A DNA stretch of 6,005 bases, taken from a virus (Duplodnaviria; Heunggongvirae; Uroviricota; Caudoviricetes). The notes under the pieces were generated by a model, which was not told the origin of the DNA, did not search any database, and worked only from the letters and a program-made list of their open reading frames with translations. The stretch is from the IMG/VR virus record IMGVR_UViG_2698536387_000007. The stretch is one strand, 5' to 3'. Position numbers and translations under genes: made by a program. Shown in pieces: positions 1,462 through 6,001 of the stretch (its first letter is position 1; each line of letters opens with the position of its first letter).

Positions 1462-1491
1462 CAGAAAAAACAAAACCCGCCGAAGCGGGTT
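1462..1491 (-). terminator. Rho-independent terminator ending the hok transcript
   Basis: On the minus strand: stem AACCCGC, UUCG tetraloop, stem GCGGGUU (1474-1491), followed directly by UUGUUUUUUCU (1473..1462). It sits 30 nt downstream of the hok stop. Confidence 0.8.
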
Positions 1492-1522: not shown

Positions 1523-1657
1523 TCAGCGGTGGCGAGGGATTTCTCCCCCGCCTGGTAATCGTACCTCGCAGAGGTCTTTCCTCGTTACCAGTGCCGTCAC
1601 TATGACGGTTAAACAGATGACGATCAGGGCGATTAACATCGCCTTTTGCTGCTTCAT
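1523..1657 (-). CDS. hok: Hok/Gef-family type I toxin, variant with the conserved C-terminal tail replaced (44 aa; possible deletion derivative or pseudogene)
   Basis: MKQQKAMLIALIVICLTVIVTALVTRKDLCEV matches the Hok/Gef/RelF transmembrane region as I remember it. SD AAGGAGAAG lies upstream of the ATG at 1657. The ORF then reads RLPGGGEIPRHR and stops, instead of the family tail (roughly IRTGQTEVAVFxAYE). The track's longer ORF (start 1714) is an in-frame leader extension, mok-like in position. Confidence 0.8.
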   Translation of the reverse strand: MKQQKAMLIALIVICLTVIVTALVTRKDLCEVRLPGGGEIPRHR

Positions 1658-1670
1658 AACCTGCTTCTCC

Positions 1671-1699
1671 TTGCCTTTCGGCGCGTAAGAGGCTAACCT
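1671..1699 (+). promoter_or_regulatory. Candidate promoter for the Sok-like antisense RNA
   Basis: Plus-strand TTGCCT (1671-1676), 17-nt spacer, TAACCT (1694-1699). This is antisense to the hok leader and start region, at the position where the R1 sok promoter lies as I recall it. The -10 is weak. Confidence 0.35.
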
Positions 1700-1705
1700 A
1701 CGTTT

Positions 1706-1780
1706 GTGAAGCATAGATTGGGCCTCAGATTAATGTTAAGCGTCTTGCAGGACGCGTAATGTTAACTGGGGCTTTTCTCT
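1706..1780 (+). ncRNA. sok: Candidate Sok-like antisense RNA (type I antitoxin)
   Basis: Predicted start about 7 nt after the -10. The region is antisense to the hok leader, including the upstream in-frame ATG (1714..1712) and its SD. A structured segment (outer stem CCUCAG/CUGGGG at 1723-1728/1765-1770, inner stem GCGUC/GACGC at 1740-1744/1751-1755) is followed by the U-rich tail CUUUUCUCU (1771-1780). Boundaries are approximate. Confidence 0.35.
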
Positions 1781-1832
1781 GTCTGCCTTACGGTGGCATG
1801 CCCGAGGCAGACAGCCTCAAGCACCCGCAGCA

Positions 1833-1860
1833 ATTCTACTTAACTCTCGCTTTACAGCAA
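1833..1860 (-). promoter_or_regulatory. Candidate sigma70 promoter for the hok mRNA
   Basis: Minus-strand TTGCTG (1860..1855), 16-nt spacer, TAGAAT (1838..1833). The predicted start near 1826-1829 falls at the beginning of the segment complementary to the 3' fbi element. Confidence 0.45.
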
Positions 1861-1900
1861 ACCGTTTTGCCCGATATGGGAATTCCCATACGGAATGAAT

Positions 1901-2005
1901 TCAGTTCCCCAGGCGCTCCATCAAAAACACAACCAGGCAGTAAACACCCACAACAGCAATAACAGCCAGAGCGCCTTCCATTACCAGTGAAATATCATCC
2001 GACAT
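1901..2005 (-). CDS. Putative 34-aa hydrophobic small protein (MSDDISLVMEGALAVIAVVGVYCLVVFLMERLGN)
   Basis: Below the length cutoff of the ORF track. ATG at 2005..2003 is preceded by a strong SD (AAGGGAGGG, 3-4 nt spacer). It encodes one predicted transmembrane helix and ends at TGA 1903..1901. No homolog recognised. Confidence 0.35.
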   Translation of the reverse strand: MSDDISLVMEGALAVIAVVGVYCLVVFLMERLGN

Positions 2006-4629: not shown

Positions 4630-5292
4630 TCAGACAAAACCGGCCGCCTTCCGGCGCTCATATTCCTGTTTCAGCAACTCAATTGGCGTTGGCCCTGGCG
4701 GGCGTTTGGGTGCTGCCAGTTGTCGCCGGACTGGCGGAACACTGAGGCCATTACCAACATGCTTTGCCCATTTCGTCAGCTGCCTTTCCACAAGCCGTTT
4801 TAACTCCCCTTCGGTCATCTGGCGCTCAATCCCCTTTGAACGCATCTCGAGGCAAATGTGGTACAGCACCGGCTGTGGCCACGGGTATTTATCACTCCCG
4901 TCGTACCGCCAGGATTCATTCCTCCAGCGACGGTATTCCTCCATCACGGCATCCACCGTCAGGCCAAATGGATTTGCCCCGCTCTCCGAAATCAACGCCA
5001 CAAACTCAGCCAGATCCGGAGGCCACGTTTCACCCGCCCGGCAGCGGTCCATGCACCGACGGCAGATCTGCCGAATTTGCTGTTCAGTCATCGCGCCAAT
5101 CTGAGCAATCCAGAGTTTCGACGGCGCAGCCCCGTTCTTCTGAGTCCAGCGGTTCGAATACACCTCCCCCATAAGCTCCCACAGCTTCCAGGCCGTTTCC
5201 GTTGCTGATAAATCCGTTTTCACGTTCCCACTGTTCGCGTGCAGCCCGGATTTCCTGAACTGCCCGTGATGCGGTGCCACCTGGTGCTGCAT
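4630..5292 (-). CDS. P: Lambda P-like replication protein (DnaB helicase loader)
   Basis: C-terminal two-thirds match lambda P as I recall it (TEQQIRQ..., [21 protein letters not shown], similar length). ATG at 5292..5290 has a good SD (AGGGGGT, 5-nt spacer). This start implies a 208-nt overlap with the O-like ORF; alternative in-frame starts are at 5172 and 5091. Confidence 0.75.
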
Positions 5293-6001
5293 GGCTTACC
5301 CCCTTGCTGACTGGTTTTACCTGTGCCCTGACGTGCTGCACGTGGCGGGCAAATTTCTGCTCCCACTGAACCTGCGTGAAAACCTTCCCCTCCGCCATCC
5401 AGTAATCCCGGAATGCGGCAAGCTCAGCAGGTGTAAACTCAGGCTCAGGCAGAGCCATACCCCACACTGCTGCCCGCTGTCGAAAATCCGGCGACGGTTG
5501 CCAGACTCCAGTCATCGGAAATTTCCCGATCGGTTCGCTCAGGCCGTCCAGGTATTCAGGTTCGGCTGTCTGCAACGACGCGTCATTCAACTCACCGGTC
5601 GTAGCACTCTCGCGCATGCGCGCGTTATGTGTGGGGTTTAATTCTTTATCTGTATCTGTATCTGTCGTGATTTGTCGTGACATATGCGTGACGCGTCGTG
5701 ACTCATCGTGACAATCAGTGTTCTGCTTCCGCAGTCTTTCCCGCTCCCGCTGCGCTCTCTTGCGCTCTGCCGGGGATTTTGCGGTTTGCGAAACATTACC
5801 GTTATCCTCCTTCATCACCTGGCGTTTTTCCCATCCGGAAATAAGATCACCATCCAGAACTCGCCCCTGCATTGCATGCAAAATTGAATCAATCACGTCT
5901 TCCGTCACATCAAGCGCACTTGCTAAATCTTCCGTCGTGACATCAATGTGACCACGTAGTGACACGCCGTGACATGTCGTGACATTTCGTGACGCACTCA
6001 C
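5084..6001 (-). CDS. O-like replication initiator with iterons inside the coding sequence; 5' end may lie beyond the window
   Basis: 305-aa ORF directly upstream of the P-like gene. The visible start is GTG at the window edge and the frame stays open to position 6005, so the true N-terminus is uncertain. An N-terminal HTH-like segment (DLASALDVTEDVIDSILHAMQ) and a basic/TDTD linker are encoded by the iteron DNA. The C-terminal segment is W/F-rich (FRDYWMAEGKVFTQVQWEQKF). Confidence 0.6.
   Translation of the reverse strand: MSASRNVTTCHGVSLRGHIDVTTEDLASALDVTEDVIDSILHAMQGRVLDGDLISGWEKRQVMKEDNGNVSQTAKSPAERKRAQRERERLRKQNTDCHDESRRVTHMSRQITTDTDTDKELNPTHNARMRESATTGELNDASLQTAEPEYLDGLSEPIGKFPMTGVWQPSPDFRQRAAVWGMALPEPEFTPAELAAFRDYWMAEGKVFTQVQWEQKFARHVQHVRAQVKPVSKGVSHAAPGGTASRAVQEIRAAREQWERENGFISNGNGLEAVGAYGGGVFEPLDSEERGCAVETLDCSDWRDD
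5649..5722. repeat. Iteron array A: ori-like direct repeats with GTGA(C/T) core at 10-11 bp phasing, plus flanking ATCTGT repeats
   Basis: GTGA(C/T) begins at 5667, 5677, 5688, 5698 and 5708, with a degenerate copy at 5718. ATCTGT x3 lies at 5648-5665. The array falls in the linker-coding part of the O-like ORF. Confidence 0.6.
5937..5998. repeat. Iteron array B: six direct GTGAC-core repeats at 10-11 bp phasing
   Basis: GTGAC begins at 5937, 5948, 5959, 5969, 5979 and 5989, consensus about GTGACAnnnC, same orientation as array A. It lies at the 5' end of the O-like ORF and encodes the low-complexity residues 1-22. Confidence 0.6.

Follow-up and report, generated by a model that had tools for sequence, protein, structure and literature searches.

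The locus

The window, by which we mean the whole stretch of 6,005 nt under analysis, is part of a lambdoid prophage of the E. coli O157:H7 type and is 99.7-100% identical to NZ_AP018488 over two blocks. Its genes all lie on the minus strand and comprise O, P, DUF1627, several small ORFs, a 34-aa ORF, a hokD-like locus, a rem-like ORF and a DUF968 ORF. The features around the palindrome that concerns us here are the following.

1523..1657, minus strand: hokD-like ORF, disrupted, as compared with the intact 51-aa HokD (WP_000813254.1) of NZ_AP018488 (L003)
1652..1826, minus strand: hok mRNA, 5′ part; matches Rfam RF01794 ('sok' by name, here on the hok strand) over the full length of the model with 114.9 bits, E = 2e-26
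1833..1860, minus strand: hok promoter as predicted from the sequence, −35 TTGCTG at 1860..1855, 16-nt spacer, −10 TAGAAT at 1838..1833; fits the RF01794 start
1857..1868, minus strand: AAAACGGTTTGC, where the conserved hok cassette has its left edge; hok loci lacking the palindrome are homologous from 1868 onward
1871..1893, no strand: extended dyad CCGA-TATGGGAATTCCCATA-CGG with a one-base bulge, from the alignment and the allele table
1875..1890, no strand: core palindrome TATGGGAATTCCCATA, identical in L001, L003, L004 and L005
1892..1908, no strand: second quasi-palindrome GGAATGAATTCAGTTCC with an EcoRI site at its centre, read from the sequence
1901..2005, minus strand: 34-aa hydrophobic ORF MSDDISLVMEGALAVIAVVGVYCLVVFLMERLGN, annotated as a 105-nt CDS in RefSeq relatives

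An earlier note on this DNA had described a perfect 16-bp palindrome between the stop of the 34-aa ORF and the hok promoter, and this description is accurate: the 16 bp at 1875-1890 are exactly self-complementary, and both the stop (1901) and the predicted −35 and −10 hexamers lie where the note had placed them. The −10 hexamer is kept in six of seven aligned hok loci, the PPompW phages having TAGGAT, and the −35 hexamer varies among these loci at its fourth position (TTGCTG or TTGCGG). Since the −35 matches the consensus at three of six positions only, a consensus scan misses this promoter. If the RF01794 start at 1826 is taken as the 5′ end of the hok mRNA, the palindrome lies at about −49 to −64, with its centre at about −56.5 and 15 nt upstream of the −35. 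On its other side, the stop codon of the 34-aa ORF, which has no Pfam match, is 10 nt away and is overlapped by the second quasi-palindrome, which adjoins the first.

The palindrome is present in a single copy in the window, even when up to three mismatches are allowed. By chance, 6 kb should contain approximately 0.09 perfect palindromes of 16 bp (5990 positions × 4^-8), so that the window taken alone confers weak significance, and the significance of the palindrome rests on its conservation elsewhere. Compared with its relatives, the window dyad is a degenerate form of a 22-24 bp palindrome, (C)CGATATGGGAATTCCCATATCG(G), in which the T that would be the partner of A1874 is missing, which leaves a bulge and costs one A/T pair.

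The palindrome and the hok cassette

The palindrome is identical in three hok-upstream contexts that have different upstream genes, namely the window type (34-aa ORF), the PPompW type (paa/adfO) and a type represented by the loci L122 and L102. The PPompW phages (L001), which are 85.7% identical to the window over the hok region, carry a perfect 24-bp version (CCGATATGGGAATTCCCATATCGG), and an O104:H4 prophage (L004) and strain AST46 (L005) carry the perfect 22-bp version CGATATGGGAATTCCCATATCG. PPompW has the palindrome and approximately 20 nt upstream of it (GAACTGAATTCATTCCG) in common with the window, but not the 34-aa ORF. The hok loci of VT2-Sakai, 2013C-3033 and F9792 lack the palindrome, although they have the same −10 and mRNA 5′ region; their homology to the window starts at AAAACGGTTTGC (1868), just downstream of the palindrome. 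The earlier note had proposed looking for the palindrome upstream of other hok loci, and the outcome thus is divided, in that it is kept in one subset of lambdoid prophages and missing from these three loci.

The same picture emerges from complete E. coli genomes. Matches to the hok promoter are found in all 5426 of them, at a median of three places per genome, whereas the palindrome region is found in about 732 of the 5426, which makes the palindrome an optional piece beside the hok cassette. It also fails as a member of the hok/sok cassette, because it is not conserved along with the hok promoter and mRNA across loci; the neighbouring mRNA passes by its match to RF01794, but this describes the neighbour and not the palindrome. 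The resemblance to prophage-borne, hokD-like hok/sok systems thus consists in the palindrome's position 15 nt upstream of a typical hok −35 and in the RF01794 match of the mRNA 5′ region, and the difference in its location beyond the left edge (1868) of the conserved cassette and in its absence from the other hok loci examined.

In IMG/VR, an exact 20-mer scan found the palindrome on at least 120 contigs, 90 copies being upstream of hok and approximately 30 in other contexts. A separate, unbiased scan that was anchored on the flanks showed that 119 of 124 hok-context copies are intact, while the other five (three alleles) carry single asymmetric substitutions, none of them compensated. Since overall divergence among these loci is low, the intact fraction says little about function.

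The earlier note had considered an operator or activator site, and one could imagine that a dimeric regulator of the hok promoter binds here: the dyad is perfect, its centre is near the promoter, and it is kept in all loci of this subtype. However, hok loci with the same −10 and cassette do without it, and the identical 22-mer is found where no hok exists, and on these two grounds the palindrome is not a hok-specific operator. Furthermore, the sequence that flanks it shows homology to protein-coding DNA when the opposite strand is read (see below). We therefore consider such a putative operator very unlikely. We know of no regulator of hok promoters, and to our knowledge the palindrome fits none of the consensus sites of host transcription factors (CRP, Fis, HipB, Cra, PdhR and others). 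Judging from these sequence comparisons, the palindrome lies outside the hok/sok cassette and is most likely not a hok operator; there is no sign of control over the hok promoter, and we infer that it plays no role there. The toxin promoter thus has no conserved control element in the palindrome, and models of hok/sok regulation need not include it. A site for a dimeric protein or a hairpin, if real, may instead belong to the gene family described in the following.

The palindrome within BstA-like genes

Many of the approximately 30 IMG/VR copies away from hok are found in frame inside genes of the KilA-N family (Pfam PF04383), where the same 22-mer encodes S-D-M-G-I-P-I-S (GAT ATG GGA ATT CCC ATA TCG giving D-M-G-I-P-I-S). 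This family matches PHROG 6287, 'BstA abortive infection system, replication inhibitor', over its full length with E = 9.6e-82, the PADLOC model of BstA with its C-terminal half (E = 1.6e-19), and BstA of BTP1 with 98% probability in hhalign. By these profile matches, the KilA-N genes that bear the palindrome are BstA-like abortive-infection genes. For the C-terminal domain, which has a PHTHF motif, we had also entertained an HUH nuclease or rolling-circle origin, an idea that was dropped once the domain matched BstA.

No intact KilA-N or BstA-like ORF covers window positions 1871-1908, and the window copy is an orphan fragment. In E. coli, the intact gene is present in 137 genomes, as against approximately 732 with the orphan palindrome. 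The palindromes within the genes form a class with a dyad of 22-24 bp, a GGRATYCC centre and arms of 9-10 bp, to which the window copy belongs as the major variant with the loss of one base. In one clade of intact genes, the commonest allele has GGG in place of GGA, which alters the central 4 nt only and leaves the 10-bp stem untouched. Among the other forms, AAACGGGAATTCCCGTTT is one stem variant, and a search for close relatives of the variant GCGGGAATTCCCGC (L199) returned two loci only. In the literature that we searched, no description of the palindrome was found.

We took 63 homologues from one-genome-per-species collections and added a few IMG/VR homologues, and 70 genes of this set span the palindrome region. 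The taxa among the 63 include Rouxiella, Hafnia, Photorhabdus, Methylobacterium, Oscillatoria, Dehalococcoidia, Verrucomicrobia, Myxococcales, Brachyspira and Peribacteria. The BstA-like KilA-N genes are loci L128-L207 and L262-L324, and the palindrome occupies columns 20-43 of our alignment A4. Because the DNA followed the protein alignment codon by codon, this alignment was not fitted to any structure. The non-enterobacterial homologues are mostly 40-60% identical to the query at the protein level, and despite this, at the palindrome codons their DNA shows the same 22-24-mer or else a palindrome with compensating changes. The variants and the peptides that they encode include the following.

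CCGAAACGGGAATTCCCGTTTCGG, peptide ETGIPVS
CCGATATCGGGATTCCGATATCGG, peptide DIGIPIS
CCGATGCGGGAATTCCCGCATCGG, peptide DAGIPAS
CCGTTATGGGAATTCCCATAACGG, peptide VMGIPIT
CGATGTCGGAATTCCGACATCG, peptide DVGIPTS
CCGTTATTGGAATTCCAATAACGG, peptide VIGIPIT
CCGACCTTCAGATTGGAAGGTCGG, peptide DLQIGRS
GCGTTGTGCAGATGACCACAACGC, peptide VVQMTTT

A 10-bp stem within a 24-bp palindrome, with its GGRATYCC centre, is thus kept inside the KilA-N coding region across many phyla. In the 61 distinct rows of the alignment, 89.5% of the stem cells pair, compared to 78.0% in shuffles, and none of 500 shuffles reached the observed value; controls in which the stem was slid along the alignment gave 30-49% pairing. Eight of the ten stem pairs show changes on both sides, and double-change cells number 59 versus 14.8 in shuffles (again reached by 0 of 500). 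Since the two arms are out of register with the codons, contacts made by the protein cannot yield Watson-Crick symmetry of this kind. The rare ATA codon is retained even in Methylobacterium, and it is also kept in other taxa that are generally regarded as high-GC. What is constrained could be the DNA, either as a duplex or as a hairpin, or else an RNA from either strand. A caveat is that quasi-palindrome template switching, an established mutational mechanism in E. coli, can copy changes from one arm to the other without selection. We propose that the normal home of the 22-24 bp palindrome (C)CGATATGGGAATTCCCATATCG(G) would be the KilA-N coding region of BstA-like prophage abortive-infection genes, where its two-fold symmetry appears to be held across many bacterial phyla by compensating changes in both arms.

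With regard to RNA, no signature of a sense-strand structure was seen in the intact genes, since mismatches of the G.T kind (6) show no excess over those of the A.C kind (12), and a sense-strand RNA hairpin was dropped on this account. This bears on the second suggestion of the earlier note, an RNA hairpin, which at the window locus would form where the upstream transcript (the 34-aa ORF and the nin-region operon) has its 3′ end, and might stabilise that transcript, terminate it weakly or insulate hok against read-through. Its position 10 nt past the stop codon would be suitable, and RNA folding predictions assign the window copy −12.8 kcal/mol and the intact form from PPompW −18.3 kcal/mol (z-scores between −3.2 and −4.7). 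Like a Rho-independent terminator, the palindrome gives a G+C-containing stem-loop just past a stop codon; unlike one, it has no U-tract after it on either strand, and a terminator scan makes no call, such that the exclusion of a canonical terminator by the earlier note was right. An Rfam search at the palindrome with E values up to 1 returned no match. Apart from the mismatch counts, it speaks against the hairpin that the PPompW phages have no ORF ending beside the palindrome, and that the same sequence is present elsewhere in both orientations and inside coding regions. We regard a function of this type as quite improbable.

A probable gene fossil upstream of hok

The window copy resembles the BstA-like genes not only in the palindrome, but also in the flank next to it on the hok-distal side, where approximately 17 nt (CGGAATGAATTCAGTTC) correspond to TCGGAATTAATTCAATC (codons S-E-L-I-Q-S) in the intact genes; by this flank, too, it belongs to the class of intragenic palindromes. 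Compared with the codons that follow the palindrome, the flanks of the window and PPompW types match at 13-14 of 20 nt and those of the L122/L102 type at 15-16 of 20, where the null, taken over all offsets in the 70 genes and about 43,000 positions in total, has a mean of 5 and a 99.9th percentile of 12. In L122/L102 the match is longer, with 21-22 of 30 nt, and none of the approximately 43,000 positions scores better than the homologous site. A second test over 17 nt gave 11-13 matches, with the 99th percentile of the null at 11. When translated antisense to hok, the L122 type reads SPDMGIPISRLTQSVKA, as compared with SSDMGIPISELIQSFKG in the intact genes, and its sequence TCGGG-AGAACATTACCA-TCGGGG-ATAAAA, shared with L102, looks like an intermediate form when set against TCGGGTAAAAACGG. 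The second quasi-palindrome of the window, GGAATGAATTCAGTTCC, lies inside this flank, and the intact genes have a 10-bp palindrome, GAATTAATTC, at the corresponding place.

Some prophages still show what the parent arrangement may have looked like. In 15 of 80 IMG/VR loci as well as in phage vB_EcoS-613R10, an intact BstA-like gene is divergent from hok, and in these divergent loci the hok 5′ motif is found 321-364 nt upstream of the start of the BstA-like gene. The antisense flank homology and the existence of a clade that is divergent from hok make a gene fossil the best reading of the window locus, with the following extent.

1871..1908, plus strand (sense strand): putative fossil of a BstA-like (KilA-N) gene, consisting of the palindrome codons S-D-M-G-I-P-I-S and approximately 17 nt of flank

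We thus propose, with a probability of roughly two in three, that the window palindrome is an orphan fossil, approximately 40 nt in length, of a BstA-like gene, which has retained the conserved palindrome of the family. We infer the following history. The parent gene would once have stood upstream of hok in divergent orientation, as it still does in some prophages. A deletion spanning the interval between the hok-facing edge of the palindrome and the left border of the cassette would then have taken the 5′ part of the gene, and later replacements would have taken its 3′ part, down to approximately 20 nt beyond the palindrome.

Several observations do not sit easily with a fossil. We found no locus with an intact gene that could be the direct parent of the window locus, and the hok promoter beside the intact genes differs upstream of the −10. 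The flank homology of the window type is modest (13-14 of 20) and limited to approximately 17 nt. Furthermore, palindrome-only copies without a BstA-like flank, in Dhillonviruses and on other contigs, are not explained by the fossil model. Between the L122/L102 and the window types, the flanks are approximately 55-60% identical and the palindrome 100%, a contrast that could reflect selection on the orphan or, equally, independent origins from different alleles.

A separate observation concerns L122 and L102 themselves. These loci are about 94-97% identical to each other (approximately 94% in the upstream gene), and the 20 nt beside the palindrome are only approximately 60% identical, with the palindrome at 100%. 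In hok orientation, the divergent 20 nt are the stretch from the stop codon of the upstream gene to the palindrome. This local pattern could result from patchy recombination with different alleles or from mutagenesis associated with the palindrome.

Bare copies in other phages

The palindrome-only copies are best seen in the Dhillonviruses, which are virulent siphoviruses. About half of them carry CGATATGGGAATTCCCATATCG in an intergenic position, 20 nt after the stop codon of the helicase-primase gene, where it is flanked by two copies of a 33-nt repeat (CTNAAAGATTAAATTYTGCGCGCATTGGTTGCC), for instance at 1488-1544 of SECphi18 (L209) and in L210 and L215. In a comparison with L212-L214, the phages SO-1, HK578 and TheodorHerzl were found to lack exactly the palindrome and one copy of the repeat. 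Minor variants of the palindrome occur in slur05, UAE_MI-01 and bob, and several Dhillonviruses have mismatches; these variants were compared from GenBank records, and a scan of IMG/VR anchored on the flanking repeats found none. A tblastn search with a BstA-like protein returned no Dhillonvirus among the matches listed (60 of 92 records). At the Dhillonvirus site, ATTGGTTGCC is present three times in an iteron-like fashion.

Further bare copies without a BstA-like flank were found on the contigs L072, L126, L034, L088 and L105. Contig L009 has two perfect stem variants, TAAAAACGGGAATTCCCGTTTTTA and CGATATGGGAATTCCCATATCG, at 5710-5733 and 6046-6067, 335 nt apart in one AT-rich intergenic region; the ORF beside this array has no Pfam match and a weak PHROG match to 'amidase', with no link to KilA-N established. 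In L073 (66% G+C), two variants stand in tandem at about 13855-13915, inside a 413-aa ORF that reads ...PDMGIPISPPADPVTGIPVSG... there. The Providencia phage Stilesk (L330, a Redjacvirus) carries an imperfect copy, CCGCTATGGGAATTCCCATGTCGG, in non-coding DNA approximately 107-129 nt from the cos end.

It could be argued that such copies are functionless, in that a palindrome spreads by illegitimate recombination and has its symmetry maintained by quasi-palindrome template switching. The situation in the Dhillonviruses, where the 22-mer sits between 33-nt repeats and is missing together with exactly one of them, would be in keeping with this, as would the junctions at the edges of the palindrome and the drop in identity between L122 and L102 to 60% in the adjoining 20 nt against approximately 94% further upstream. 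It is, however, hard to see how a functionless element would be retained across phyla in a protein-coding domain and at a cost in amino acids, and the recurrence of the same major variant among the orphan copies would be left unexplained. Such a purely mutational origin strikes us as scarcely credible. The palindrome-only copies in virulent Dhillonviruses and on other phage contigs leave room for a role at the level of DNA.

Relation to aba and to other intragenic sites

Such a role is of interest because of what is known of BstA. BstA is a prophage-encoded abortive-infection protein that blocks phage DNA replication, and its own prophage escapes by way of aba, an element of the bstA locus that is DNA-based and matched to its BstA variant in each case (Owen et al. 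2021, PMC8585504). The aba of BTP1 was mapped to 63 bp, comprising 29 bp upstream of the gene and its first 34 bp, with terminal CCCGCC direct repeats (PMC8585504). The palindrome is not this published aba, since sequence, position and symmetry are all different: aba of BTP1 lies at the 5′ end of the gene, away from the KilA-N codons, and is not palindromic, and bstA of BTP1 has no palindrome at the homologous codons. What the two have in common is that both are short DNA elements in a locus of the bstA family that overlap coding sequence. The protein family described here is BstA-like as well, and aba acts as DNA, with each BstA variant having its own cognate element. By analogy, our hypothesis is that the palindrome may be a corresponding cis-acting DNA site in the canonical KilA-N subfamily.

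Sites that lie inside the gene of their own protein have precedents in the iterons of the lambda ori in gene O, the origins of pT181 and phiX174 in their rep genes, and the Roi site of HK022 in roi. In these cases, as here, a dyad or repeat is kept at the nucleotide level inside the gene of a DNA-binding protein; the difference is that binding of the palindrome by a BstA-like protein is hypothetical. Roi, an HTH protein, binds within its own gene, and we take it to be a Bro-N/KilAC rather than a KilA-N protein. A connection to HK022 Roi was considered and dropped, as a 13.7-kb right-end segment of HK022 (record 27000-40751, which begins upstream of gene O and takes in Q as well as the lysis genes) has no copy of the palindrome within three mismatches.

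Taken further, the analogy to aba leads to an alternative to a mere fossil, in which the orphan palindrome would be a working DNA ligand of BstA-like KilA-N proteins, and its copies in phages without the gene would be decoys that blunt abortive infection. The copies upstream of hok in O157-type prophages, the 22-bp copy of the Dhillonviruses and the arrays of stem variants would all be candidate decoys, with the stem variants setting specificity. This would agree with the finding that BstA systems are switched off by a short, variant-specific DNA element in their own locus (PMC8585504), with the symmetry-preserving constraint inside the BstA-like genes and with the ATA codon kept in Methylobacterium. 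Exact, flankless 22-mers at unrelated sites (Dhillonviruses, L072, L126, L034, L088 and L105) and the copy near cos of Stilesk point in the same direction, and the presence of two stem variants each in L009 and L073 is what variant-specific decoys would be expected to look like. The greater abundance in E. coli of the orphan than of the intact gene would fit as well. However, the only mapped aba, that of BTP1, differs in sequence and place, and the bstA gene of BTP1 has no palindrome at the homologous codons. Further arguments to the contrary are that the window copy is without one base of the outer stem, that asymmetric substitutions are tolerated in five of 124 hok-context copies, that mismatches occur in Dhillonviruses, and that the commonest allele of one intact-gene clade departs from the major variant (GGG for GGA, though within the central 4 nt only). 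All in all, we regard a decoy function of the orphan as rather unlikely, and a gene fossil is the reading that we prefer.

Whichever way the orphan is read, the palindrome is linked to phage defence by the BstA-like genes, in which it is constant, with compensating arms, from Enterobacteria to Methylobacterium, cyanobacteria and Dehalococcoidia, and among defence families BstA alone is already known to be silenced by a DNA element from within its locus. Should BstA-like proteins recognise the palindrome, biochemical work would gain a defined 22-bp ligand, and a counter-defence route by DNA decoys would be suggested, which can be searched for in phage genomes.

Other features of the window

Some further observations concern the hok locus and the replication genes of the window. 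In the hokD-like ORF, TT at about 1558 stands in place of approximately 60 nt of NZ_AP018488 (L003 4503-4562). This costs the ORF codons 34-51 together with the stop, and residues 34-51 are changed to LPGGGEIPRHR, such that the C-terminus reads ...EVRLPGGGEIPRHR. Just downstream of hok, at 1470-1551 on the minus strand, there is a weak Rfam match to isrK with 27.2 bits (gathering score 50), which ends in a terminator-like hairpin at 1491..1474 that is followed by a T-run. In the O-like replication gene (5084-6001, minus strand), runs of a repeated GTCGTGAC / CGTGACA motif are found at about 5640-5720 and 5935-6000, and they resemble origin iterons embedded in an initiator gene, as in lambda.
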